IMG/VR virus record: IMGVR_UViG_2687453522_000001 | DNA: 64,000 nucleotides | Direction: 5' to 3' (one strand) | DNA from: a virus | Taxonomy: Duplodnaviria; Heunggongvirae; Uroviricota; Caudoviricetes | Shown: in pieces, positions 4,118 to 32,097 of the stretch | How positions within the stretch are numbered: the first letter of the stretch is position 1 | Layout: each line of letters starts with the position of its first letter | The notes under the pieces: model-generated | What the model saw: only the letters and a program-made list of their open reading frames with translations | Told to the model about the DNA's origin: nothing | Database searches by the model: none | Translations under genes and position numbers: made by a program

Positions 4118-7100
4118 TTATGCGTATTGTTGGATGACGGCCAGAACGTCCGCCACGTTGTGTTTTGTCTCGATAATCCACCAGTTACCCGGGAAATCGC
4201 TGTTCTTCGCCTTCGCTGGCAGCCAGCGAGCGCCGAATTTCGCCTTGATTGCGTCTTTCGCACGGAAAAGAACGCCTTTCATGCCTGAGGCTTCCTGAAG
4301 CCCAAATACCTCGCCAGCGGCGAATTTTGGTGCGTACATCATCTTCAGGTCGGCGGTGGATACGCGATAATTCAGACCAAGAGACTGAGCTATGCTGGTG
4401 GCATCACCCTGTATTGATGATAACTCTTCTTGTTTCTCGTTTCTGGCGGCAATTTCTTCCTCCGTGATGTTGCCAAGGGCCAGGTTTATCCGATCAGCGT
4501 CGGCCTGTTTCTCTTCATCGGTGCGCCCGGCAAGAACCGTGTTAATTCTCTGCAATATCTCCACATGATTCTTACGCATGCTGAGCAATTCCGGCGTAAC
4601 TTCGTTAAGATCCACCAGCCCAAGGATGGCAAGGTCGGAAAACATTGATACCAGGTTGTAGGTCATGCGATAGCTGAGTTGGCCATAGGCTGATGGCAAC
4701 TGCACCGCATCCATTTGATAGGCATCCATAAATTTAGAGCCGTCGTTTACGACATCCGCAATTGCAGGTGTGATTTTCCCTGTGGTAGCGGCCTCCCTGA
4801 TTGCTGTTACCCACGATTGAGTCAGTGCGGCGACTGCATGAATCAGATTGGCTTCCCGTTCTGCTGCGATGCGCGCGCTTGCTGAGTCCATTGCCTGCTT
4901 GATCTCGGCTTTATTGCTGTAAATGCCAATGGTGCCAAACTGTGCTGTGGTGATCTCATAATCTGACGCCCGGAACTCATGGGTACCGAAAATGGCATTG
5001 GTGACCTCAAGTTCAGAATCCCCGTTACGAGTAGCCCCCTGGCTTGTTTTCTCCGGCATTTTTGCGATCGCATCCGCTATTTTCTCCTGAATTGCTTCAG
5101 GGGATAGCGTATCTCCGTATGACGCGATTACATCGCCATAATTGGAGCCAAACAATTCAACCAGGAATGTTTCTGCCGAACGGATCTGGCGGTTATTCCC
5201 TTCCGACATCATACCAAGCACCCATTTTGCAATTGACGACTTCAGCGCGCCGTCACGGCGATCCGGGTAAACCGCATGCTTCAGTGGGTCCGTATAGGTA
5301 CCAACAAAATCAATGCTATAGCCTGACTCTGTAGTCTGAACGCCGTATGAGTCAGTGATTTTGATCATGCCGCGCTGCTGGAAACGGTAGAAATCGTCAC
5401 AGGAAATGATGTCGTTAATCCCGGCGATGGAGACGCCACCACTGATTTTCTGCATAACAGCATCTTCATCGGGAGTTACATCCACCTGTTTATCCAGCGT
5501 CTTCACATCCCAGTTACCCGATTTGGTGCCTTTGAAGGTAAAGATGATCTCCACGTCTGCGCGCTGGCTGTCGAAGTCCAGCGACTTAATACGAACGATA
5601 TCACCGGCACAATCGTAGTATTGGCCTACACGCCATGAGCGATCGCCGATAACAAGGAACTCATTCGCATGGTTAACCAGATCAGGATCAACATCCAGAA
5701 TGCCTTTATTTATTGCATCCTCCACCAGTGGGCGCAGGCGTTTGATATCCGTCGCGGCCTTCTGAGTACGGTTCAATAATTTCTCATAGCGGGAGATGGC
5801 TTGAGAGATATTAGCCTTGCGCTGAATGGCGCTTTTCAACGACGCGCGATACTGTGCTAACAACGTACGGTCTGTGTGATGGACGCTACCCCAGCGGGCC
5901 TTCCAGTCTGCGTTATCAGCTGCTTTGGCCATTACCGCCTGTTTGAATTTAGCTACCTCGGCGGTGGTCTTTTCAAGTTCCGCTTTGCTTCGCTCTAATT
6001 CAGCGGTAAGTACCTCCACATCCTCGCCAGCTGCGTGCTGCGCCTTGATGTAGTTCTGAAGGTCGATAGTAGCCTGTTCTTTCTGGCGAGCGCGTTGCGC
6101 GGCTTTCGCCTTATCCATTTGAACCTGCATCATTGCCAGACGTTCGCCATCATCCTTAGCGGTATACATCTGCATTTCGATCATGTCATTGGCGTCGGCG
6201 TTCTCCATTTCTGACTTATCTGAACGGAGGATATCGGAGATCCAGCCTGCTTTACGCTTCAGCGTCTTCAGTCGGTATTCATCGAAAGACCCCTTGCCGC
6301 AGTAGTAGTGAACGCGAACGCTTGCACGGTTGGAGCCAACTCGTGCACCGCGACCGTTACGTTGTGCGATACTGGCTGGTGTCCACGGCAACGTCAGGTG
6401 GTGGATATCCGTCGTTCCTCGATGCAGGTTGATACCCACCTCTGCCTTTTTGTTGCAGATGATGATCGGAGTCCGGCCCTCCTGGAAGTCGGCAGCAATC
6501 TTTTCCAGCCCACCCAGCGACATTTCATTTTGCTGCGCGATATAGGCGTCATACAGAGCCATTTGCTCGTTGTATTTCGCTATCTGTGCATCTGTTGGTT
6601 CATCCGGTAGCTCTTTCGGCGGTTTAACCGCTTTCAGTTTCTTACCGGTTTTACCTGCCTCGGCAACCGTCTGAGCATTCAGGATCCCCACCTTTGAAGG
6701 TTCAAGGTTAAGAGCATTGCAGATAATGCGCTTGAGCTTCTGGTGTTGCGTTTTTTCATCGGTGAAGATGATTTGCTTACCTTCCGGGAAAAACTCCTTC
6801 AGCGTGGCAATCAGCTTCGCGTATTTGGGCGTAACGGGGTGAGTTACGGTCTGTTCGTCAATGCCAAACTTGGCCAGGCGCTTATTCACTTCCTGCTCAA
6901 ATGCTTCCGGTACCTGCAACTGAATAAACTCGCCCTTATCTATCAGGGAGTATTGCGATTGCTGCGTGATCGAATCATCACTGTCGTCGTCTTCGCTGGT
7001 GGCTTGTTTAGGCAAACTGTCCGCCAGCTGCTGCACCGCATCGGCGTACTCCGGCAGGAAACGATAGGTGATCCTGCGATAGTACAGGTCCATGTCAGTA

Positions 7101-10100
7101 CATACGCGGTCCATATCCCTGATTATTGAGAAGATCGGACGGGCTTTCTCGTGCTCAATCACGCCGTCTTCATTGACCGAGGTCGTTACGCCATTGTTGG
7201 CTTTGGCTGCCGCTTCCGCCTGCTGACGCAATTCTTCATACGCCGCCAGTTGTTCTTCCGTAAGTGGTGCATCCTGCTGGTGTTCGTCCAGTTCCGGGAT
7301 CTCCACGGTATCCTTAACGTCTTCCGCCGTTTTAAGCGTTGTCCAGCGATGGAATATGCCGCGCAGCGCATCAAGGTTTTCAAAGCCCACCAGCGCCATT
7401 TTTTCTTCAACTTCACCGCTGATTTTCTGTACCGTTTCCAGCCTGGTCTTGCCGAAGAATTTAACGAAGTCATCAGGACCGTAGATCCCCATCTTCTGCC
7501 AGTATTCCTTCGGCAGCACATGAGAAAGCATGTTGTATGCATCGATCGGGGTGTTAACGACTGGCGTTGCAGTCAGGAGAACCGGTCCGCGCCCACCATT
7601 CTTTTTCATCAGGTACGCGTTTTTAATTGCCATATCCCGCGCCGATTGCGCCACCGCGCTGGTGGGCAGATAGGCCAGTTGTGACGCTTCGCGACCATTT
7701 TTATAGCTATTGCGGTAGTTGTGACCTTCGTCAGCGATCACACTATCGAAGCCCATATCCTCAAAGTACGGATACTTCTCTGCTTTTTCGGTGCCGGTAT
7801 CTGAATACTCCGACAATACCCGGCGACGCGCGGCCTCTTTGCGGTGGGAGTCGGAGTCCATTGCGCTGGCTACGCGCCCGGCGGCAACGAAGTCATAAAG
7901 CATATCCTGTGCATGCTCATCTACGGTGTCATCACGTAGCGGAATGCGGGCGTATTGTTCTTTGGTAAACACGACTGCACGGTAATTTGAGTGCGGGATC
8001 GCGTTCATCCGCGCCGTGATAGTGGCTTCATCTGCCAGTTTTAGGGCATCGCGCATAACTGGAGTGCCATCAGTACCAAGAACAGGTTTACCGTTCTCAT
8101 CGAGCACCGGCACCTGGCGAATCTGATCGCCATCCATCAGCACATCAAGACCGACGAACAGGTAGTTACTGAATGCCTCTTCACTCAGGAATTCTTTTGC
8201 TTCGTAATACCAGTTTTCCAGCACTGATTTAGGCACTACATACGCAGTACGGGTGGAGCGACCGTTCTCATAGTTGAACGCCTCAAGCGCCAGCGCGGTC
8301 GTAGTTTTACCCAGCCCGGTGCCGAAGCCCAGGATGCCGCGCCCATCTTCGGACAGTCGGCGCACTTCGCTATTCTGGTAATCAAATGGCTGGCGCTTAC
8401 CGCTTAATCCCTTCAACCCAAGCGGATCGCCAGAGTGTTCATACGGGATATTGCTATTGAACACATCGTTGTATTTGGCAACCAGTTCATCGTAGCGATC
8501 GTGCGTCTTGATCCACTTATTGAACTGGTCCTCAAGCAGTGCCATCTGCTCGCGGTAGCCGTTCGCCGTCGCGCTATCTTTGCCACCGATACGCGCACCA
8601 TTGAGATACTTTTCCAGCTGTGCCGGGAACCCGGTCGCGTTTTCACCTGATTTACGGTCCCACTCGTAGCGGATCTCGCCTGTTTCTTTATCCTTGCGCT
8701 GGACGACACCGTATCGGTGCCCGACGAACAGGCCATCACCACCGTGATAGGTGTCAGAAACCATTTCGTCGCCTTCCAGCTGCACTGACTGCACATAGCG
8801 CAGATCCGGATAGCCGTTTTCCTGCAAAAACTCCAGAATGACGGAACGGTCGAACCAACGGCTATTGAGCTTAAACCGGATATTCTCTGCTGGCGTCTTG
8901 ATGCGCTTCTCTTCGATCGCTGCCAGCTGATTAAGGACGTTGTTCTTTACTGGACCGTCGGGGAGCGTGGCGAGGAATTCCTGTTTTGGAGCCACTATCT
9001 CGTTAATGTCGCCGCTGGTGGCGCGGGCGAACGGAACAATCCCGCCATACGGAGAAACCGCAATACCAGGAGTGCTGGCCAATAAATTAAGCAACTCTTC
9101 ATCACTGGCTGGCAATTCGCCGGTAAACGCAAGGCGGAAATCATCGAGCTGGATTGGATCGCGGGTAAGATCGCTATAGAGATAACGCAGGGTGTCCTGA
9201 TAGCTGGTGGAGTCATAACTGGCGCTGGAATCATGCGTAACCAGCTTTCCTGTCAGCTCGTCAGAAATAGTGCCATCCAGCTTAATTGCACCACGGAAAG
9301 CAAACCAGGCGCGCGCACCGCTTCCCGATAATTTAGCTATCGGACCGCGACCAGGGTTACCAAAACGGTCAATCTCTGCCTGCAAACGGGATACCAGAGA
9401 AAGGCGCTGCTGTTCGATTTGTTCAGCACTATGCCCGGCGGCCTTCATATCCTGATATTCAATTAACATCCGGCCAATCATCGCCCCACGATACAAGCGT
9501 TCACGGTATTTTTCAGGCTGGCTGTTAATCCAGTCCACCAGCTGCACCATATCGTCGCTGATTGATGTGGTGTACTTATCGCGGACATTTGCCATCTGGG
9601 TAAATGTCATACCGAGACGGCCTTCTGTTGTAGTCAGGTTACGCTGAAGAGCCTCCCAGCTATCCGCGCCATAACTGGCAGCATCAATTTTAAGTTCCTT
9701 CCCGGCATCAGCTTCAATCCAGCGACCACCAGCATATTTTTGCCATACGCCATTAATCAGGCGCATTTCCCCTTCACCAACAACGTCTGCGGTCAGTGAC
9801 GGTTCAGCCATATCGAGCAAAGACCAGTCGATACGGCTTTCGAAACGATGAATCAGCTTCGCTTTAAGAGCCTGGTTATCAATCTGACCGTCGGCACGAA
9901 CCTCAATACGCCCCTGGAAGCCCTTTTCCTGGGTGCCATGAACAAACCGGCGGCCATCCTTTTCAAACCACTTGCCAGAAATAAACGTTGGCCAAAGCAC
10001 ATTTGCCGATTCAAGAGTGCTTTCATCCACCAGGGGGATTTTCTCAGCCATCTCTGCCGGATGTTTGCGCATCAGCACCACATCAACGACTGTACTGGTC

Positions 10101-22296: not shown

Positions 22297-24212
22297 GCCG
22301 CTACCCCCGCTTTCTGGATTGCTACCAACAGATCAGCCAGGTGGCGAGCTGCGCCGTTAACCAGCTCTTCGTTTTCCTCAAAACGTCCGGCAGCCTGAAG
22401 GGCTGCAATCGCTTCCCGGACATTGCCCCGAGCGTTACGGATCTCCGCCATGTCAGTGCTTTGCATATCCATCACGTTATTGAGATATTCAATGGCTTTA
22501 TTAGCCTCTGCATCTGCTTCGCTAACCGTTTCATCAGGCTGTGCCGGGGCCGGTTCTGGCTGAGTAATCTCACCGACTTCGGCCTGCAATGTATTGATCA
22601 TGCTCTGCACCATTTTCTCGGTGCCAGCGCCCCCCGGAAACGCAATATTGGGGAAAGTTTTTTGAAACTGAGTTTTCAGCATTACGCGGAACTCGTCTGG
22701 TGAGCTGGTGGCCAGATCCAGAGTTTTTTGTGCATATTTGCCAAACGGACCATTAGTAAGTGTCTTCGCCAGGAAGTCGAAAGAATCCTCGCGAGGCAAT
22801 AACTTCAGGTCGTACTCACTCATTTGCTGATCAGAAAGCGGGGTATCGTAAGTAGCAATGCCGTAGCGTGCATATTCATAATACGGGTCACCTTCATCAG
22901 GGCGCGGCAGAATTGCTTTGTTACCTTCAGGTATTGCGCCAGGGGCCGCCGGACGCATTTGCAGGGCATATCGATATGCACCTACAGAGACTTCTGGTTC
23001 AGGCGAAGAGCTACCGGTATCCTCCGCTGGTTCAGGTTCGACGTTTTCCGGTTTATGTTCTTCTGGTTGGACCAGGTATTCCGATACATTACCCGCTTTA
23101 TAGGCTTTAAACAGCTTGCCGATCGCATCTGCCATGTCCACACCCTGTATGGATTTAGCCTTGATCATGTATACGCTGCCATCCGGATCGGTTAACTGGA
23201 TATACCCTTCGCCGCCCCCAATGAATTGCTTCATTGATGCACCATTACTGAGCGTCACTTCCCCGTCCATATGCATACGATTTTTGATACTGGCAAGGCG
23301 ATCCGTCAGCGCGCGAGAGTGCCCACCAGTCATCCCCGCTGGAGCAATGGTATCGCGCCCACCAGTGCGATTGAGCTGATCAATCTCCGTCTGCAAACGC
23401 TCATTCTCTTCATAAAGAGAATCCGCTTCCGATGCAACAGCGTTAATTTTCTGCTCCAGATCTGCCTTCTGCCCTTCTACCGCTGCCACCTGATCCGCGA
23501 GGTCGCTCATGGCATCCTCTTTCTGGTCACTGTCAGCCTGTAGTTGGGTTATTTCATCAACAAGGGCTTTTTTCTTCTTCTGCGCACGCTGGAATTTTGC
23601 CGAGTTTTTCTCTGCAAGGTTGGCAAGTTTCATGGTGACCTGCGCCAGCGTCATATCACGTCCACTCATCGGAGCAACGGTGTGAGTAACGTCTTTTTTA
23701 TTCAGTAAGAACTGGAAAGCAACCAGCGTATCGCTATTGGTGATCCGGTTTTCCGCTGTCGGGCTATGAAACAGAATGCTGATAGTCTGACCATCACTGA
23801 GCGGAATAATGGCTGGCAAGACCGGCAGCCCGTTAACGTTACGTGCCCGGCCAATTTCAGCGCCGCCGATCGCGCGCGCGCCGCTCTGGGCCACATCCCC
23901 CGTTTTATCACTCCCCGCAGAGATTCCGGTACCATTCAGCTTCTGGTTCAATGCCCGGACAAATGCCTGCATGGTCCGGTGTAACTGCAAACGAGTAGAA
24001 CTAATCGCCTCCAGTAAATCCGTAGCACACCAGTGGATCGGCGTGTCATAGAAGAACGTAGCCTCGATTTCCTCCAGGGTGTTGGATTCCGTCATCAGAT
24101 AGCGGTCCTCACCGGCCATTAATGCGCGATATTCATCATCAGTCACTGGCGGGGGAAGCACGTCAAGCCCAGGCTTGATCGTCACCCCTTTATTGATATT
24201 GAACTGTTCCAT
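22293..24212 (-). CDS. darA: DarA-like virion anti-restriction protein, 639 aa
   Basis: Size and operon position (after lydA/lydB/hdf, before ddrA/ddrB) fit P1 DarA. Confidence 0.55.
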   Translation of the reverse strand: MEQFNINKGVTIKPGLDVLPPPVTDDEYRALMAGEDRYLMTESNTLEEIEATFFYDTPIHWCATDLLEAISSTRLQLHRTMQAFVRALNQKLNGTGISAGSDKTGDVAQSGARAIGGAEIGRARNVNGLPVLPAIIPLSDGQTISILFHSPTAENRITNSDTLVAFQFLLNKKDVTHTVAPMSGRDMTLAQVTMKLANLAEKNSAKFQRAQKKKKALVDEITQLQADSDQKEDAMSDLADQVAAVEGQKADLEQKINAVASEADSLYEENERLQTEIDQLNRTGGRDTIAPAGMTGGHSRALTDRLASIKNRMHMDGEVTLSNGASMKQFIGGGEGYIQLTDPDGSVYMIKAKSIQGVDMADAIGKLFKAYKAGNVSEYLVQPEEHKPENVEPEPAEDTGSSSPEPEVSVGAYRYALQMRPAAPGAIPEGNKAILPRPDEGDPYYEYARYGIATYDTPLSDQQMSEYDLKLLPREDSFDFLAKTLTNGPFGKYAQKTLDLATSSPDEFRVMLKTQFQKTFPNIAFPGGAGTEKMVQSMINTLQAEVGEITQPEPAPAQPDETVSEADAEANKAIEYLNNVMDMQSTDMAEIRNARGNVREAIAALQAAGRFEENEELVNGAARHLADLLVAIQKAGVAA

Positions 24213-24213
24213 G

Positions 24214-24825
24214 TTAATTTCCTGCTTTCAGTTGCTTAAGACGGCGTTTGAGTTCGCCATTTCGGGCCTTTTCGTTATTGAGTCGGCCTGTCTCCTTATC
24301 CAGCTTCGCCCGCAAATCAGTGATCTGCTGTTGATTGAAAGACACCGAGTTCTGCGCTGATTTATAAGCGGCAACCACCTGAGCATTCCGCTGTTTTGCC
24401 TCTTGCAGGCGCTGAAAGTTGGATTTTACTGCCGGTTTCTTGTCTACCGGATTGGCAACACGTTTCGCTTTGGCGATCAGTGATTTCTGGAATTTTGCGG
24501 AGTTTTTGCGGGCCGCTTGCCCCATGACGGTACCAAGCGTCTTGATATCCGGCGATTGAGCGTTAGGAATAGCTTTTCCATTCAGCCTCACAGACGATAT
24601 ATCGCCAGTATCGTTTACCTGTATGGCAAGAATTTGTCCGTCGTTAAGAACCAGCTTTGCGGTTTTAACTTTAACGCCATCTTTCGTTGTTGCGCGGTTG
24701 CTGGAGTCAACCTCAATTACCGTAACACCGGTTTTATTGATCGCCGCGATAAGGGATTTCAGCCCCTTTTCATTAACCTGGTCAAAATCGACCGTTGCAT
24801 ACTTATTTTTCGTCATCTGACACAT
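24214..24825 (-). CDS. Hdf-like protein, 203 aa
   Basis: Position between lydB and darA; basic coiled-coil C-terminus. Confidence 0.4.
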   Translation of the reverse strand: MCQMTKNKYATVDFDQVNEKGLKSLIAAINKTGVTVIEVDSSNRATTKDGVKVKTAKLVLNDGQILAIQVNDTGDISSVRLNGKAIPNAQSPDIKTLGTVMGQAARKNSAKFQKSLIAKAKRVANPVDKKPAVKSNFQRLQEAKQRNAQVVAAYKSAQNSVSFNQQQITDLRAKLDKETGRLNNEKARNGELKRRLKQLKAGN

Positions 24826-25246
24826 CCTGTGCGAGATTTATTACGTAACTTCTGCGGATTTGCTGAGTAACAGGGAAAATCCGATACAACGGGTTAATGA
24901 ACGAGTCGCCATGCGTAACCATGACGTTGAAATGCCACAGTCGCTCTCCTTTACCCATATATTCAGTGGGTATGTACAACCATTCACTGTTTTCGCCCTG
25001 TTCAGCCGACGTCAAACAACGTTGTTCGCCTTCAATCACTGTCGTCGGCTTCTGAACATCGCGGATCCAATATCTGACCGTTGCGCCGCGCAAAAACGGG
25101 AATTTAGACCGGTATTTGAACGGCACCCGGATGAAACCCGGTTTAATTTCCACATCACCAAGTTCTAAATGCGTGATGTCCTTGCGTTTTAGCAAATAGC
25201 GATCGGCTAAGGCTAACGCAAGAACGCATACACCCCAGCCAATCAT
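24803..25246 (-). CDS. lydB: LydB-like antiholin, 147 aa
   Basis: Overlaps the lydA stop; N-terminal hydrophobic segment; named on synteny. Confidence 0.45.
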   Translation of the reverse strand: MIGWGVCVLALALADRYLLKRKDITHLELGDVEIKPGFIRVPFKYRSKFPFLRGATVRYWIRDVQKPTTVIEGEQRCLTSAEQGENSEWLYIPTEYMGKGERLWHFNVMVTHGDSFINPLYRIFPVTQQIRRSYVINLAQDVSDDEK

Positions 25247-25572
25247 TTCCCGCCTCCCTTTTTCACCAAACTTGTAAGAACATTCAGAATGCTATCGATA
25301 TTCACTCGTTTCATCCCTGAAATCACCTCATGACCGTTATTGCTGGCTATCGTTACCATTAAGTACGTAATTGATAACTCCCAGCCCTCGTGTTGCCCCA
25401 ATAGGTACGCCACCGCGCCAGCTGTCACTGCAACAAAGATCTCCGTAACCAATCCCAACAAATTGCCAGACTGGCGACCGTCTCGGACATCCATCAGGAA
25501 CGTGCCTATCCCACCAATTACTGAAAGCAGGAGCGCAATAGCAACTGGAGCTAATTCCTGTGTGTCAAGCAC
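25243..25572 (-). CDS. lydA: LydA-like holin, 109 aa
   Basis: Small protein with two or three predicted TM helices and a charged C-terminus; first gene of the dar operon as in P1. Confidence 0.55.
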   Translation of the reverse strand: MLDTQELAPVAIALLLSVIGGIGTFLMDVRDGRQSGNLLGLVTEIFVAVTAGAVAYLLGQHEGWELSITYLMVTIASNNGHEVISGMKRVNIDSILNVLTSLVKKGGGK

Positions 25573-25646
25573 AAGTTCCCTCCTACGTTGTCAGGAGGTA
25601 ATGGTATGCAAAGTAACTTCTCAACCGGTTATGTTGCATAAGAGAC

Positions 25647-25910
25647 TTACCTATTCAACCAACTTTTGGAACCTTCAATAATAAGCCTGCTATTGGCGCT
25701 GAAAATAAGAACCATGCAGCTCTGAAGGCTTTCATTCATATCCTTATATTCCGCGAGATACATGCCAATAAAGCCAGCAAGTACGGCGGAAATACATTCG
25801 GCCAGCAATTTCTTGCATGAAGACTCGTAACGGTTTTCACATAGCCCACTCAAATACGAATACACCCCACCAAGAAGGGATAACATCACGATATGTACAT
25901 AAAATGTCAT
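25647..25910 (-). CDS. small membrane protein (holin-like)
   Basis: 87 aa with two hydrophobic helices; upstream of lydA. Confidence 0.4.
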   Translation of the reverse strand: MTFYVHIVMLSLLGGVYSYLSGLCENRYESSCKKLLAECISAVLAGFIGMYLAEYKDMNESLQSCMVLIFSANSRLIIEGSKSWLNR

Positions 25911-26037
25911 TTTTTACCTATACAACAGTAAGTTGAACAACATCTGAGAACGGTATGCACTTTGTGATTTCCACACACACTGGTTTTGTTAATTAAAACC
26001 TGTAGCTTGCAATAAATAACGATAGTGGGCAGAAAAT

Positions 26038-26283
26038 ATGCTAATAGGCTATGTACGCATATAGACAAATGAACAAAACACAGCTATGCAGTGAAAAGCA
26101 CTTGAAAGCGCAGGATGTGAGCTAATTTTTGCGAATAAGGCGAGCAGCAAAAAGGCTGGGCACCCTGGGTTAAAAAAGGTTCTGCGTATGCTTTCCAGAG
26201 GTGATACCCTAGTCTCGGGCTAGGGACAACATTTCGAGGACAGTTTTCATTAGCGGTCAGCAGGCGCTAGATACATCGAATTG
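26038..26283 (+). pseudogene. decayed serine DNA-invertase gene fragment (Cin/Pin/Gin/Hin-like N-terminus)
   Basis: Translation MLIGYVRI*TNEQNTAMQ*KALESAGCELIF...KAGHPGLKKVLRMLSRGDTLVSG* is co-linear with the Cin N-terminus but has three in-frame stops, one replacing the catalytic-Ser codon; downstream homology fades. Confidence 0.6.
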
Positions 26284-26345
26284 ATGTGCCGCGCGATAAA
26301 TGTACCTATTCTATCAAGATAAATTACACCGACGCGGCATTAGAA

Positions 26346-26918
26346 TTACAGCTCAGATTGAGTTTGGCGCTTCTCTACAGGATGATAACGATAAATCGTC
26401 GATACACCGATATCGTAAATAATTGCCAACTGTTTCCTGCTGTAGCCATTTTCGATCAACCTCGCTATTTGCTCATGTTGTTCTTTTGTCAACTTCGGGC
26501 GACGTCCGCCAATGCGTCCCTGTTCGCGTGCAGCTGCCAGTCCGGCCAGTGTTCTCTCAACAATTAATTCACGTTCCATTTCTGCTAAAGCCCCCATGAC
26601 GTGAAAAAAGAAACGCCCCATGGGTGTTGATGTGTCAATACTGTCTGTCAGACTACGGAAATTAACACCTTTTTCCCGCAACTCCTCTATAAGCGTGATA
26701 AGGTGTTTCATACTTCTGCCAAGCCTATCCAGCTTCCAGACAACCAGCGTATCTCCTTCTGATAACGTTCTGAGCAGCTTTTTCAAGCCTGGTCTGGCTG
26801 ACTTTGTTCCGCTTATTTTATCTTCAAAAATCAGTTCACATCCTGCGCACTCCAGCGCGTTACGCTGCAATTCTGTATTCTGGTCATTTGTTGATACGCG
26901 GACATAGCCAATAAGCAT
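26346..26918 (-). CDS. cin: Cin serine DNA invertase, 190 aa
   Basis: MLIGYVRVSTNDQNTELQ catalytic motif, resolvase core and C-terminal HTH; adjacent to an invertible tail-fibre segment. Confidence 0.9.
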   Translation of the reverse strand: MLIGYVRVSTNDQNTELQRNALECAGCELIFEDKISGTKSARPGLKKLLRTLSEGDTLVVWKLDRLGRSMKHLITLIEELREKGVNFRSLTDSIDTSTPMGRFFFHVMGALAEMERELIVERTLAGLAAAREQGRIGGRRPKLTKEQHEQIARLIENGYSRKQLAIIYDIGVSTIYRYHPVEKRQTQSEL

Positions 26919-26945
26919 GATGGATCCTCTGAATAAAAACCGGGG

Positions 26946-27437
26946 ATGATGCCAGTTAGCCGTAATCTCTGCATTTTCTTAAACGTTGGTTTAGGGGAAG
27001 GCTCGGCGCTGCCCGTTGGTGTGCCTGTTCCGTGGCCCTCAGCCACACCACCAACGGGGTGGCTGAAATGTAACGGTGCAGCGTTTTCTGCCGTTGAATA
27101 TCCTAAACTGGCGAAGGCTTATCCGACAAATAAATTGCCGGATTTACGCGGTGAGTTTATTCGTGGCTGGGATGATGGACGCGGCATTGATACAGGACGT
27201 GCTTTATTGAATATTCAGAGTGATGATATTAAAAAGTTCGAACTTAAGTATTTTGGGCCAGGTGGTGGGCCTGGAACCGCAACAGTATTTGCATTGCAAA
27301 ATGGTGTGAGTGGTATTTATACAACAGGAATTAATCAGGAAGGCGGATCTACAACCGCTAATGCTTTTCAAATTCCTGGTGGGCGTGAAACCCGTCCGAG
27401 AAATATTGCATTTAACTATATTGTGAGAGCTGCATAA
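26946..27437 (+). CDS. Sv', silent alternative tail-fibre C-terminal segment
   Basis: Tail-collar-like receptor-binding motifs (PVGVPVPWP, GWLKCNGAAFS, YPKLA); carries cix at its 5' end, so inversion would fuse it in frame to Sc. Confidence 0.6.
   Translation: MMPVSRNLCIFLNVGLGEGSALPVGVPVPWPSATPPTGWLKCNGAAFSAVEYPKLAKAYPTNKLPDLRGEFIRGWDDGRGIDTGRALLNIQSDDIKKFELKYFGPGGGPGTATVFALQNGVSGIYTTGINQEGGSTTANAFQIPGGRETRPRNIAFNYIVRAA
26974..26999. other. cix recombination site (left)
   Basis: TTTTCTTAAACGTTGGTTTAGGGGAA: 26-bp imperfect palindrome of Gin/Cin/Hin crossover-site type; encodes FLNVGLGE in Sv'. Confidence 0.6.
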
Positions 27438-28039
27438 TGAATAGCGCGATATTGAATAATGAACTTATTGCCGTACAGGCAGGAAACATCATCGTTTACA
27501 ACTATGACAGTGAGACAAAGGAATATATTTCCGCATCAACTGAATATCTTGCGGTAGGTGTTGGTATTCCGGCATATTCTTGTTTAGATGCCCCCGGCAT
27601 ACATAAGGCTGGTTATGCAATCTGCCGTTCTTTGGATTTAAATTCATGGGAATATGTGCCAGACCATCGCGGTGAAATCGTCTATAACACCGAAACGGGG
27701 GACGCCAAAGAAATCACTGCACCGGGCGACTATCCTGAAAATACAACCACTATTGCCCCATTAACGCCATACGATGAATGGGATGGTGAGAAATGGGTGA
27801 CAGATACTGAGGCACAGCATAGCGCCGCAGTAGGCGCGGCAGAAACACAGCGACAGTCACTGATTGATACTGCAATGGCTTCCATCAGTCTGATTCAACT
27901 GAAATTGCAGGCCGGACGTAAACTGACGCAGGCAGAAACAACTAGACTTAACGCTGTGCTGGATTACATTGACGCGGTGACGGCAACAGATACCAGCACC
28001 GCGCCGGATATCAATTGGCCTGCTCCCCCGGAGGCGTAG
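27437..28039 (+). CDS. U', alternative tail-fibre assembly protein
   Basis: Follows Sv' on the same strand inside the invertible segment; convergent with U. Confidence 0.55.
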   Translation: MNSAILNNELIAVQAGNIIVYNYDSETKEYISASTEYLAVGVGIPAYSCLDAPGIHKAGYAICRSLDLNSWEYVPDHRGEIVYNTETGDAKEITAPGDYPENTTTIAPLTPYDEWDGEKWVTDTEAQHSAAVGAAETQRQSLIDTAMASISLIQLKLQAGRKLTQAETTRLNAVLDYIDAVTATDTSTAPDINWPAPPEA

Positions 28040-28457
28040 GCCAGACGGGATTTGATGTATCAACGCGCATCAGCAAGACCCGGTATTTTTTCCATTCAGA
28101 TAACGCGGCGGTTTCTTCTGCCGTCGCGATTTCCGCATCAAAAGCATCCTGTCTCCAGACTATTTCCTTATCAGCCATAGAACGCAATACCGTTCTTTTC
28201 TGTTCAGCCTGAATAATCTGTTGTTCAGCGGAGAGTGGCGGGATATCAATCCACGCAGGATTACCATTTTTATCAGCCCCCAGCGTTTTGCCTTCTGGCG
28301 CTACGCCTGTGTAAATTGCCATTGTTTCATCATCAACATCAGCGCCATTTTCAGGCCATGAACCGGCGCTGATATATACATCTTTTAGTGCTTCCGGATA
28401 GAAAGAGCCTTTATAAAATTTATTCATTCTTAATACCCCAACGCGATAAAACAACAA
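28011..28457 (-). CDS. U, tail-fibre assembly protein (expressed orientation)
   Basis: Immediately downstream of S on the same strand, overlapping its stop. Confidence 0.55.
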   Translation of the reverse strand: MLFYRVGVLRMNKFYKGSFYPEALKDVYISAGSWPENGADVDDETMAIYTGVAPEGKTLGADKNGNPAWIDIPPLSAEQQIIQAEQKRTVLRSMADKEIVWRQDAFDAEIATAEETAALSEWKKYRVLLMRVDTSNPVWPTPPGEQAN

Positions 28458-31400
28458 TCTTCGGTGCCCTCTCCGGATGGCGACCAGTTCTGAATACTGA
28501 TATGCGTTCTGCTGGCAATACGCACATTCATCGCGGCATTGTAGCCAGGTGTTCCACGGTTTCCGGTCGCAAACAAACCTGCATAGGGAAAAGCAAATGG
28601 TAAGGCATATCCAGCATCAACTCCCTTTTGTGTTGCCACCATTCCCCACTGCAACATAAGTTTCACCGGGTTTCCTGTCGTCGCAATGCATGGAATGTAG
28701 ATGTAGCCATTACCTGACATCATTGACCTGAAGCTGTCTAAATCCAGTAACTTCGAGGCATTATCTGCTCCAACATCTCGTGTTGCAGCGGTCCCTAACT
28801 GGAGCGCATTTCGGAAGGCTGATACATCAGAAATATCATATCCATTAGCCGATTTCTGCATAGCTCCGGAGGCTTTATCTATCGTTTCTCCCAAACCAAG
28901 GTAATTAAGAACGCTCTGAATACTGGGCTTACTAAGAATTGCACGTCCAACACTTGTCAGTGCAGTTAACGCGGCACGATCAACCCCTGTGAAATAAGGG
29001 AGTTTATCTGCTGCGGTAGCTAGTGCCGCTAGAGCAGTGAGCGTAGCGTCTGCCGCTTGCTTTCCATTAGCCAAATCATATGCAGCCTTGACAGCTTTCG
29101 GTGTAGCGGCCAGCACTTCAGACGTGCTGTTAGTGGCACTACTGAGCTGAGTGATGCCTTTCGCTGTCAATGAAGCTGTTGGCACACCAGTGATCTGATT
29201 CCAGGGATGTGTATGACTGGATGGTGCCTTTCCGGCTGCTAGATCGTATGCAGCTTTAACCGCTTTTGGAGTTGCAGCTAATGTTTCAGAAGTGCTGTTG
29301 GTGTCGCTACTGAGCTGAACTATCCCTTTTTGTGTCGTGGTTGCATCCTGGGCCGTATACTTCCCGTTAGCCAGGTCATATGCTGCCTTGACTGCTTTCG
29401 GTGTGGCGGCCAGCACTTCGGACGTGCTGTTAGTGGCACTACTGAGCTGAGTGATGCCTTTCGCTGTCAATGAAGCTGTTGGCACACCAGTGATCTGATT
29501 CCAGGGATGTGTATGACTGGATGGTGCCTTTCCGGCTGCTAGATCGTATGCAGCTTTAACCGCTTTTGGCGTTGCAGCTAATGTTTCAGAAGTGCTGTTG
29601 GTGTCGCTACTGAGCTGAACTATCCCTTTTTGTGTCGTGGTTGCATCCTGGGCTGTATACTTCCCGTTAGCCAGGTCATATGCAGCCTTGACAGCTTTCG
29701 GTGTGGCGGCCAGCACTTCAGACGTACTGTTAGTGGCACTACTGAGCTGAGTGATGCCTTTCGCTGTCAATGAAGCTGTTGGCACACCAGTGATCTGATT
29801 CCAGGGATGTGTATGACTGGATGGTGCCTTTCCGGCTGCTAGATCGTATGCAGCTTTAACCGCTTTTGGAGTTGCAGCTAATGTTTCAGAAGTGCTGTTG
29901 GTGTCGCTACTGAGCTGAACTATCCCTTTTTGTGTCGTGGTTGCATCCTGGGCCGTATACTTCCCGTTAGCCAGGTCATATGCTGCCTTGACTGCTTTCG
30001 GTGTGGCGGCCAGCACTTCGGACGTGCTGTTAGTGGCACTACTGAGCTGAGTGATGCCTTTCGCTGTCAATGAAGCTGTTGGCACACCAGTAATCTGATT
30101 CCAGGGATGTGTATGACTGGATGGTGCCTTTCCGGCTGCTAGATCGTATGCAGCTTTAACCGCTTTTGGAGTTGCAGCTAATGTTTCAGAAGTGCTGTTG
30201 GTGTCGCTACTGAGCTGAGTGATGCCTTTCGCTGTCAATGAAGCTGTTGGCACACCAGTAATCTGATTCCAGGGATGTGTATGACTAGATGGTGCCTTTC
30301 CGGCTGCTAGATCGTATGCAGCTTTAACCGCTTTTGGAGTTGCAGCTAATGTTTCAGAAGTGCTGTTGGTGTCGCTACTGAGCTGAACTATCCCTTTTTG
30401 TGTCGTGGTTGCATCCTGGGCCGTATACTTCCCGTTAGCCAGGTCATATGCTGCCTTGACTGCTTTCGGTGTGGCGGCCAGCACTTCGGACGTGCTGTTA
30501 GTGGCACTACTGAGCTGAGTGATGCCTTTCGCTGTCAATGAAGCTGTTGGCACACCAGTAATCTGATTCCAGGGATGTGTATGACTGGATGGTGCCTTTC
30601 CGGCTGCTAGATCGTATGCAGCTTTAACCGCTTTTGGAGTTGCAGCTAATGTTTCAGAAGTGCTGTTGGTGTCGCTACTGAGCTGAGTGATGCCTTTCGC
30701 TGTCAATGAAGCTGTTGGCACACCAGTGATCTGATTCCAGGGATGTGTATGACTGGATGGTGCCTTTCCGGCTGCTAGATCGTATGCAGCTTTAACCGCT
30801 TTTGGCGTTGCAGCTAATGTTTCAGAAGTGCTGTTGGTGTCGCTACTGAGCTGAACTATCCCTTTTTGTGTCGTGGTTGCATCCTGGGCCGTATACTTCC
30901 CGTTAGCCAGGTCATATGCAGCCTTGACAGCTTTCGGTGTGGCGGCCAGCACTTCAGACGTGCTGTTAGTAGCACTACTGAGCTGAACTAATCCCTTTTG
31001 CGTTGTGCTTGCATCCTGCGCCGTATACTTGCTTTTCGCCAGATCGTAGGCTTTTTTAACTGCCAGCGAACTTGCAGCGACATCACTTCTGGTACTGGTT
31101 ACAGAGTCGGAAATTTCAATGCCTATCGTGAGATCGATGCGGTCGGATACATCTATCATTTCCTGAGTAATAGCAGATACGCCAGCAGGGATATTCACCG
31201 TACAAACAAGCAGTTCCCCATCTCCTAACTGATATGAATCGGTATAGGTTCTGGCAACAAATTCAGCCGCATGAATATGTGACGCGGTATTAACCTGATA
31301 AGAATCTTCTCCAAGGAGGTATCTTCCCTTCAGCACAATTGCATATTTCTTACCTGCGCTAAGTGCAAGAGAAATATCCTTACGCTGCTGAATAGTTACC

Positions 31401-31651
31401 TGGTAGAATTCACCAATATTCACTGACGCCGCGCCAGCGGTTTTATCACCATCCACTGAGGTGATTAACAGTTTCATCCCACCGCCAGGCTTAGGCAAGA
31501 AACCAGCATAAAATCCCGGGTCAACAATTCCCCTGAATTTTCGGTTTAGAGCGGCTGACAGATATGGTTCGTGGTATTGCACATCAGCCACCAGAGCCAA
31601 CGACTCGGGTGATGGGTAAGTAACCGATGTAACAACTGTAACGTCATTCAT
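28430..31651 (-). CDS. S tail-fibre protein (constant Sc plus variable Sv in current orientation)
   Basis: Track ORF 28430..31738; probable start MNDVTVV at 31651, just overlapping R. Contains at least 13 phage tail-fibre repeats (TxKGxxQLSSxTNSTSExLAATPKAVKAAYDLA); cix sits at the Sc/Sv junction. Confidence 0.8.
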   Translation of the reverse strand: MNDVTVVTSVTYPSPESLALVADVQYHEPYLSAALNRKFRGIVDPGFYAGFLPKPGGGMKLLITSVDGDKTAGAASVNIGEFYQVTIQQRKDISLALSAGKKYAIVLKGRYLLGEDSYQVNTASHIHAAEFVARTYTDSYQLGDGELLVCTVNIPAGVSAITQEMIDVSDRIDLTIGIEISDSVTSTRSDVAASSLAVKKAYDLAKSKYTAQDASTTQKGLVQLSSATNSTSEVLAATPKAVKAAYDLANGKYTAQDATTTQKGIVQLSSDTNSTSETLAATPKAVKAAYDLAAGKAPSSHTHPWNQITGVPTASLTAKGITQLSSDTNSTSETLAATPKAVKAAYDLAAGKAPSSHTHPWNQITGVPTASLTAKGITQLSSATNSTSEVLAATPKAVKAAYDLANGKYTAQDATTTQKGIVQLSSDTNSTSETLAATPKAVKAAYDLAAGKAPSSHTHPWNQITGVPTASLTAKGITQLSSDTNSTSETLAATPKAVKAAYDLAAGKAPSSHTHPWNQITGVPTASLTAKGITQLSSATNSTSEVLAATPKAVKAAYDLANGKYTAQDATTTQKGIVQLSSDTNSTSETLAATPKAVKAAYDLAAGKAPSSHTHPWNQITGVPTASLTAKGITQLSSATNSTSEVLAATPKAVKAAYDLANGKYTAQDATTTQKGIVQLSSDTNSTSETLAATPKAVKAAYDLAAGKAPSSHTHPWNQITGVPTASLTAKGITQLSSATNSTSEVLAATPKAVKAAYDLANGKYTAQDATTTQKGIVQLSSDTNSTSETLAATPKAVKAAYDLAAGKAPSSHTHPWNQITGVPTASLTAKGITQLSSATNSTSEVLAATPKAVKAAYDLANGKQAADATLTALAALATAADKLPYFTGVDRAALTALTSVGRAILSKPSIQSVLNYLGLGETIDKASGAMQKSANGYDISDVSAFRNALQLGTAATRDVGADNASKLLDLDSFRSMMSGNGYIYIPCIATTGNPVKLMLQWGMVATQKGVDAGYALPFAFPYAGLFATGNRGTPGYNAAMNVRIASRTHISIQNWSPSGEGTEDCCFIALGY
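28886..28911. other. cix recombination site (right), inside S
   Basis: TTCTCCCAAACCAAGGTAATTAAGAA, inverted relative to the left site (about 20/26 identical to its reverse complement); encodes LNYLGLGE. Confidence 0.6.
29040..31080 (-). repeat. in-frame tandem DNA repeat array within S (about 300-bp units, near-identical copies)
   Basis: Blocks such as tttcgctgtcaatgaagctgttggcacaccagtgatctgattccagggatgtgtatgactggatgg recur many times with only point differences. Confidence 0.85.
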
Positions 31652-31662
31652 CAAGCATATCC

Positions 31663-32097
31663 TTATGCTGTAGTCGTGTTTATGGCCATAACTGCGGTAT
31701 ATGTTTTGCCCACATACAGCGAGTCTTCTTGGACACAAATAATGGCGATTGGCTTATTCTCGTTATCCAGAACAACCAGAGTGTTGAATGGGTAGTTTTT
31801 CCCTTCCTGCAACTGACTTTGATCAAGGTCCATTCGGACAGTAATTATCCCTCCTGAGTAGGTTGGGACGAGGTTGATGGTGCAAAATTGACTGGTCAGT
31901 TCTGCCAGATCGAAAGCCTTTGGCAGTTCTCCAATCTCATAAGTGCCATCTCCTTTCTTAGTAACCAGTGAACTGGTACCGAAAACGGCCTTGCTGATTA
32001 AAAATCGAGAGCCTTTGTTAATGGACGATTCAGCGCGCCGCTGATAGTAATAGTCCAACAACTGACTCTTATAGAGGTTTGTTGAGACGTCAGACAT
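31663..32097 (-). CDS. R-like tail-fibre/baseplate-associated protein, 144 aa
   Basis: Immediately upstream of S, as P1 R; named on synteny. Confidence 0.45.
   Translation of the reverse strand: MSDVSTNLYKSQLLDYYYQRRAESSINKGSRFLISKAVFGTSSLVTKKGDGTYEIGELPKAFDLAELTSQFCTINLVPTYSGGIITVRMDLDQSQLQEGKNYPFNTLVVLDNENKPIAIICVQEDSLYVGKTYTAVMAINTTTA

Follow-up and report, generated by a model that had tools for sequence, protein, structure and literature searches.

A probable cin relic beside an acquired Min-type DNA invertase in a P1-like phage-plasmid, and a Mu-like phage terminus between them

Introduction

The closest described counterpart of the locus reported here is on plasmid p15B of Escherichia coli 15T–. 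In work dating from 1990–1992, Sandmeier, Iida, Arber et al. reportedly found there a truncated 5′ invertase pseudogene, psi-cin, lying beside min, and they are said to have regarded Min as pin-related DNA that had taken the place of a Cin-like system. p15B is described as having six crossover sites, compared with the two found in the DNA analysed here. In the phages P1, P7 and D6, an intact cin gene occupies the place of the stub, and reads rightward from lydC or lydA to cixL and the C segment. Salmonella phage SJ46, whose genome is P1-like, likewise carries a 5′ stub of cin to the left of a convergent, acquired invertase named 'pin'.

A full-text literature search for psi-cin by name gave no match, and a link between p15B or Min and the end of a transposable phage was not found in searchable papers. 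The stub described below is of a type already known in substance, the p15B psi-cin pseudogene, and is a widespread scar. The coincidence of the boundary of the neighbouring cassette with the terminus of a transposable phage adds a modest new detail.

Results

Position of the stub in the P1-like backbone

The window (the whole stretch of DNA analysed, 64 kb in length) was recognised from sequence matches as a region of a P1-like phage-plasmid. Escherichia phage vB_EcoM-813R1 is 100% identical to it over positions 25600–26400, and plasmid NZ_CP024817 is 100% identical over 25900–26950. Reading rightward, the genes are lydB (24803–25246, minus strand), lydA (25243–25572, minus strand), lydC (25647–25910, minus strand), the stub on the plus strand, an invertase of 190 amino acids on the minus strand, and then the tail-fibre genes. 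The ancestral lydC–cin intergenic region (25911–26037, plus strand) is collinear with P1 31533–31659, at 79% identity.

A sharp mosaic boundary is present within the lyd genes. lydA matches P1 at 100% identity and lydB at 99% (24803–25572), and identity to P1 then falls to 84% in the lydA–lydC spacer and to 72% in lydC (25573–25910). The drop between lydA/lydB and lydC indicates that the stub sits in a part of the backbone that is older and has diverged further.

The stub is the truncated 5′ part of a P1-type cin gene

The stub, psi-cin (26038–26214, plus strand), corresponds in blastn, blastx and Pfam comparisons to nucleotides 1–177 (codons 1–59) of a P1-type cin gene. Its alignment with P1 cin is ungapped, with 158 of 177 nucleotides identical (89.3%; blastn E 6e-56), and across the 59 codons it is 83% identical to the P1 Cin protein (blastx E 5e-30), compared with 68% to the window's own invertase at the protein level. 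The stub frame (26038–26340) translates as MLIGYVRI-stop-TNEQNTAMQ-stop-KALESAGCELIFANKASSKKAGHPGLKKVLRMLSRGDTLVSG-stop-GQHFEDSFH-stop and onwards. With X at the stops, the conceptual peptide scores 37.1 bits against Pfam Resolvase_N (PF00239; cut-off 23.3 bits), the match covering only positions 2–68 of the 145 in the profile.

A first-pass annotation, made from the sequence alone, had read this stretch as the decayed N-terminus of a serine invertase with a stop at the position of the catalytic serine, and both points are borne out by these comparisons. The Ser9 codon, TCA in P1, is TAG here (26062–26064), and the Arg19 codon has become TGA (26092–26094). Two further in-frame stops (26221–26223 and 26251–26253) lie beyond the cin-homologous part, so that the interval 26038–26283 contains four in-frame stops in total, not the three originally counted. 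Nor does the homology simply degrade, as had been stated: similarity to cin breaks off abruptly at 26214, and 26215–26283 is not invertase-like. With stops at codons 9 and 19 and homology ending at codon 59, the stub contains no uninterrupted open reading frame of about 185–190 amino acids, and the C-terminal HTH_7 DNA-binding domain is absent. A dyad, CCCTAG-N7-CTAGGG (26207–26225), spans the breakpoint at 26214/26215. A search of 25600–27000 against Rfam gave no match at E ≤ 1.

Collinearity with P1 extends over window positions 25000–26214 and ends at cin nucleotide 177. Over these 177 nucleotides, P1 cin is followed in identity to the stub by P7 cin (87.0%) and D6 cin (84.2%), and then by the window's own invertase (68.4%) and Mu gin (63.8%). 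The comparison with P1 and P7 that had been proposed with the first reading finds an intact cin at the position of the stub in both. The ancestral place and orientation of the stub, together with its closer similarity to P1 cin than to the neighbouring invertase, argue that it is the resident cin. On these alignments the stub is a P1-type cin in its native position, neither a copy of its neighbour nor inverted. It resembles the cin genes of P1, P7 and D6 in position, orientation, nucleotide sequence over the first 177 positions (84–89%) and in containing the region annotated in P1 as the enhancer. Unlike them, it is cut after codon 59, has stops in place of Ser9 and Arg19, lacks the helix-turn-helix domain and a 3′ cixL, and has accumulated changes with no codon-position bias.

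Decay of the stub

Changes were counted as specific to the stub at positions where it departs from a base common to the P1, P7 and D6 cin genes and the SJ46 stub. The 12 such changes are distributed over codon positions 1, 2 and 3 as 5, 4 and 3. Differences between intact genes are distributed as 1, 0 and 16 for P1 versus D6 cin, and as 4, 0 and 10 for P1 versus P7 cin; third positions thus account for 16 of 17 and 10 of 14 differences respectively, and for 34 of 48 between P1 cin and the window's min. The even spread over codon positions marks the stub as a true pseudogene. Taken with the truncation, the two nonsense codons and the missing HTH domain and cixL, the relaxed constraint seen in the sequence makes the stub a pseudogene of long standing, which most likely does nothing today.

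Among close relatives the stub differs at 0–1 of 177 positions and min at 16–38 of 573. Selection on the stub was considered as an explanation of this conservation within the class and was rejected, as the pattern reflects recombination on the min side. In L004, L005 and L009, which are otherwise near-identical plasmids, min has 16–38 differences in 573 positions and the stub and spacer together have 0–4. This suggests that recombination is frequent on the invertase and tail-fibre side in these three plasmids.

Promoters, enhancer and crossover sites

Both predicted promoters of P1 cin are degraded in the window: the –10 element of P1cin has changed from TAAAAT to TAAAAC, and that of P2cin from TATCAT to CAACAT. 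A sigma-70 scan of both strands over 25850–27050 found no promoter-like site. A relic of the Cin recombinational enhancer lies at 26056–26127 (plus strand), and was located as the equivalent of P1 31678–31749 from the P1 annotation and a side-by-side alignment. It carries 10 substitutions in 72 bp relative to P1, three of them in the first 9 bp, seven in the middle and none in the last 27 bp. Its position is conserved; Fis-dependent enhancers of this kind are elements of roughly 60–70 bp with conserved ends, lying in the first ~100 nt of the invertase gene. The window's min gene has an enhancer-equivalent sequence of its own.

Crossover sites were sought throughout the 64 kb window with a 26-bp consensus for the Din family, scored out of 20. 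Only two sites scored 17/20, the next best scoring 14. One, a cix/mix-like site with the sequence TTTTCTTAAACGTTGGTTTAGGGGAA (26974–26999, plus strand), bounds the invertible tail-fibre segment on the side of the invertase. Its inverted partner (28886–28911, minus strand) lies inside the S tail-fibre gene, and the segment between the two is about 1.9 kb long. In P1, cixL overlaps the 3′ end of cin. It had been suggested that an orphan cix-like site might accompany the stub; nothing convincing was found near it, the best local matches scoring 12/20 (at 25968) and 11/20 (at 26204). The 11/20 match, which is centred on the breakpoint, together with the dyad there, was considered as a crossover site and rejected as within chance expectation.

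The neighbouring invertase and the replaced DNA

The gene facing the stub (26346–26918, minus strand) encodes an intact Min/Pin-type serine DNA invertase of 190 amino acids, with Resolvase_N (8.8e-52) and HTH_7 domains in Pfam. The stub had been described as convergent with cin; it is indeed convergent with an intact invertase, but that gene is of the Min/Pin type, its product being identical to P1 Cin at 141 of 190 residues (74%). It is identical at 187 of 190 residues to the invertase of pJIE250-3, for which Venturini et al. (2019; PMC6906374) give 98.5% identity to p15B Min. The protein cluster to which it belongs is named merely 'recombinase family protein'. To judge by these similarities, the neighbour is an acquired Min/Pin-type gene and not cin. 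The first reading had also considered the acquisition of a second recombinase, and here the acquisition stands but the roles are reversed: the intact Min/Pin-type gene is the incomer, and the remnant the native gene. Its description as 'shufflon-type' is a misnomer, since stub and neighbour both belong to the Din family. Din-family enzymes are serine invertases, whereas the recombinases of classical shufflons (Rci) are tyrosine recombinases.

Comparison with P1 by blastn showed that the DNA from 26215 to 30904 replaces the 3′ part of cin, the C segment and the distal part of S. Homology to P1 (96%) resumes at 30905, in the repeat region of S. A Mu-like prophage is 82% identical in nucleotide sequence to the window over 26279–27208; the interior of the cassette (27208–30905) showed no homology to the sampled Mu-like prophage. 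The S tail-fibre gene (28430–31738, minus strand; 1102 amino acids) contains near-perfect tandem arrays of 97–98% identity, one of period 300 in 3.9 copies and one of period 468 in 2.7 copies. These arrays, which enclose position 30905, are a much enlarged version of the 'a/b repeated elements' in the annotation of P1 S.

The cassette begins at a Mu-like phage terminus

The gap of 131 nt between the stub and the invertase consists of two parts, 26215–26281 and 26282–26345. Comparison of prophage boundaries identified the second part (plus strand) as the terminal 64 bp of a Mu-like transposable phage, beginning 5′-TGATGTGCCGCGCGATAAATGTACC. In chromosomal prophages this stretch naturally flanks Min-type invertases on their 3′ side, and in the window it includes a terminator-like hairpin for the invertase gene (26326–26340, minus strand). 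In four E. coli chromosomal prophages homology to the window begins exactly at the TG of TGATGCGCCGCGCGATAAA, and the DNA to the left is unrelated. These prophages lie at unrelated loci: inside yehQ, inside a gene for a 4Fe-4S protein near gnsA (probably yccM), beside rcsC and beside bglA. The same 5′-TG boundary is therefore found in four chromosomal insertions and in two plasmid lineages.

The prophage in yehQ (L017; NZ_CP155528.1, 1767800–1810000) is 37.5 kb long and is flanked by duplicated ATTAAA sequences within yehQ. It encodes an rve DDE transposase (PHROG 310), an AAA+ transposition protein (PHROG 296), Gam, Mor and a Mu-type portal, and its other end reads, as the reverse complement, TGATTAGACTTGAGATAAATGACAGG. 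The yehQ element is a Mu-like transposable phage, and window base 26282 falls exactly on the terminus of its family. A second end, or a copy of the other terminus, was sought in the 64 kb window and none was found; a single end survives.

In the right-end region of Mu, likewise, the invertase gene gin is last or nearly last before a 5′-TG terminus, with its 5′ end towards the invertible tail-fibre segment. Unlike Mu, the donor family has no com or mom, an early operon in inverted orientation, a P2-like tail module and, by Pfam, only the rve core of the transposase. This family may resemble the BcepMu-type phages. Prophages L017, L015, L020 and L021 represent the family, which is marked by a Min-type invertase as the last gene, a tail module of P2-like type and, compared with Mu, an inverted early operon; they are inserted in different host genes.

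The spacer between the stub and the phage end

The remaining 67 nt (26215–26281) form an orphan spacer common to this plasmid architecture. A search of 5,426 E. coli genomes, 72,556 plasmids and 50,697 phage records gave no match to it outside this architecture. In local alignments of the spacer with nucleotides 178–561 of P1, P7 and D6 cin, 37–85% of shuffled sequences scored as well. The spacer is thus not detectably cin: its score did not rise above the shuffles, and the two candidate alignments (to cin about 308–346 and about 352–390) are mutually exclusive, as expected of noise. From about 26227 the spacer is 75% identical to CP086493, a D6-like lineage in which it follows a longer psi-cin reaching nucleotide 307.

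Distribution and other cin stubs

The arrangement of stub, spacer and invertase is present in 157 PLSDB plasmids at a query coverage of at least 80%. The spacer alone is present in 162 plasmids; among 5,426 complete E. coli genomes about 170 have it, on a plasmid in nearly every case.

Notes in the GenBank record of P1 allow a comparison with p15B. They state that P1 31570–31832, comprising the cin promoter and the first 173 nt of the gene, is 89% identical, with one gap, to p15B 7147–7408, and they place the min enhancer at p15B 6463–6533. Between the end of the stub and the distal edge of the min enhancer there are 684 nt, both in p15B and in the window (26210 to 26894). The matching identity and spacing indicate that p15B carries the same structure. 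Like the stub in the window, psi-cin of p15B (GenBank X62121) lies between lydC and a convergent Min, is cut at about nucleotide 173–177 and is 89% identical to P1; the comparison draws on the P1-record notes, and at that resolution nothing different is detectable.

Other P1-like elements have cin stubs that end elsewhere. By local alignment the ends are at nucleotide 52 (L008), 212 (L006), 217 (L007), 234 or beyond (SJ46) and 307 (CP086493, in a D6-like backbone), and megablast matches ending at about nucleotide 140 in more plasmids suggest one more class of stub. In the CP086493 stub the Ser9 codon is intact and the frame is broken by a 2-nt deletion, which indicates that the point mutations are lineage-specific and later than the truncation. 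In SJ46 (1150–1510) the stub (BI168_gp037) is still an open frame of 74 amino acids, annotated as 'DNA invertase'. The incoming DNA in SJ46 is of the Mu gin type, consisting of gin, the gin–com spacer and about 20 nt of com, and its junction is not at a phage terminus. The exchange of cin for a Mu-type cassette in SJ46 was a separate event. In L008 (NZ_CP101616.1, 2500–4100) cin is cut at nucleotide 52, no invertase is present and an inverted piece of P1 containing cixL is found, so that the tail fibre seems to be fixed in a single state.

Discussion

In all probability, psi-cin is the dead 5′ stub of the cin gene of the P1 backbone, left after a foreign cassette of invertase and tail-fibre genes replaced the rest. 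The ancestor would have had the P1 layout, with lydC leftward, cin rightward, cixL, the C segment and S leftward. The foreign cassette would then have replaced the region that starts within cin, or shortly after it, and ends midway through S, with the 5′ end of Min facing the invertible segment as in Mu. The 177 nt of cin that remained would have been convergent with the new invertase and, free of constraint, would have gained the stops at Ser9 and Arg19 and the evenly spread substitutions.

As the left edge of the cassette, at 26282, coincides exactly with the terminus of the phage family described above, we infer that the cassette derives from a Mu-like phage. It probably arrived either by direct transposition into the plasmid or with a little foreign flank. 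The terminus and its left flank are common to both plasmid lineages, which indicates one inherited event. The sequence of steps that we envisage begins, most probably, with transposition of a Mu-like phage into or beside cin, such that its S gene was parallel to that of P1. The two S genes have many repeat units in common, and recombination between them would then have deleted what was left of the phage, together with the C segment and the 3′ part of cin. The expected outcome is a stub, a phage end, Min reading leftward, an invertible segment and a hybrid S reading leftward, and this matches the window. In the window lineage a later internal deletion probably reduced a stub of at least 307 nt to the present 177 nt, with the loss of about 130 nt.

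We lean towards delivery of the Min cassette by transposition of a P2-tailed, Mu-like phage with an rve transposase into or beside cin, which would make psi-cin a scar on the target side. No whole Mu-like prophage was found in a P1-like plasmid in PLSDB, where the transposase gene occurs in five plasmids, none of them P1-like. Because 26215–26281 has no demonstrable cin origin, the phage may have inserted into cin itself or have arrived with a short foreign flank. It is possible, though we consider it doubtful, that a Mu-like end with some 60–100 bp of flank from another replicon was joined to cin by illegitimate recombination, 26215–26281 being that flank. This would account for the lack of detectable cin similarity in the spacer, and the SJ46 lineage offers a parallel, its cin stub being joined to a Mu-type gin at a non-terminal point, inside com. 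However, the spacer matches nothing outside this architecture in the genomes, plasmids and phages searched. In CP086493, moreover, 73 nt separate cin nucleotide 307 from the terminus, a distance compatible with collinear, decayed cin.

Whatever the route of the cassette, a different account of the stub itself would be that selection has retained it, either as a second Fis-dependent enhancer for Min or as a promoter for antisense transcripts that enter the invertase gene at its 3′ end. In favour of this, the enhancer has kept the P1 sequence over its 3′ 27 bp, 31 bp show no variation even when the CP086493 stub is included, and at least six cin stubs with differing end-points all keep the 5′ end. 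Retention of function nevertheless seems to us very unlikely. The enhancer is altered at its 5′ end and between its ends, min has an enhancer-equivalent sequence of its own, and both cin promoters are degraded in a region with no promoter-like site. The L008 stub is cut inside the enhancer in an element without the invertase, and one-sided deletion beside a needed lydC control region would also keep the 5′ ends. Still less can be said for the origins suggested in the first-pass annotation, namely a past duplication or a rearrangement that inverted and truncated an ancestral invertase. The stub and its neighbour are convergent and both are of the Din family, which speaks for these origins, but the stub is far closer to P1 cin (89%) than to the neighbour (68%), and P1 collinearity runs from lydB through cin nucleotide 177 with no inversion. 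Both origins are in effect excluded, and an inverted duplicate or a flipped ancestral gene is scarcely conceivable here.

The favoured reading, a remnant of native cin beside an imported cassette, makes the stub a molecular fossil that distinguishes the native from the imported invertase across a large set of P1-like phage-plasmids, of which many come from clinical E. coli isolates. The host-range module of tail-fibre genes has been swapped repeatedly, each swap leaving a cin stub of different length. A cassette that ends at the terminus of a transposable phage suggests a route by which unrelated phages may exchange tail fibres, namely transposition followed by recombination between tail-fibre genes. 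If transposition was indeed the route, the terminus at 26282 is a precise date-stamp common to at least two P1-like lineages.

For annotation, the gene at this position that is usually labelled cin, hin or pin would be better described as Min-type, and 26038–26214 as a pseudogene. In the closest phage record, ON470617.2, the invertase is split into two coding sequences, 'Hin2' and 'Hin1' (4747–5318). That record differs from the window over 24000–30405 by a few indels (6 gaps), and the window's invertase is a single intact frame of 190 amino acids; the split is probably a sequencing or annotation frameshift in ON470617.2.
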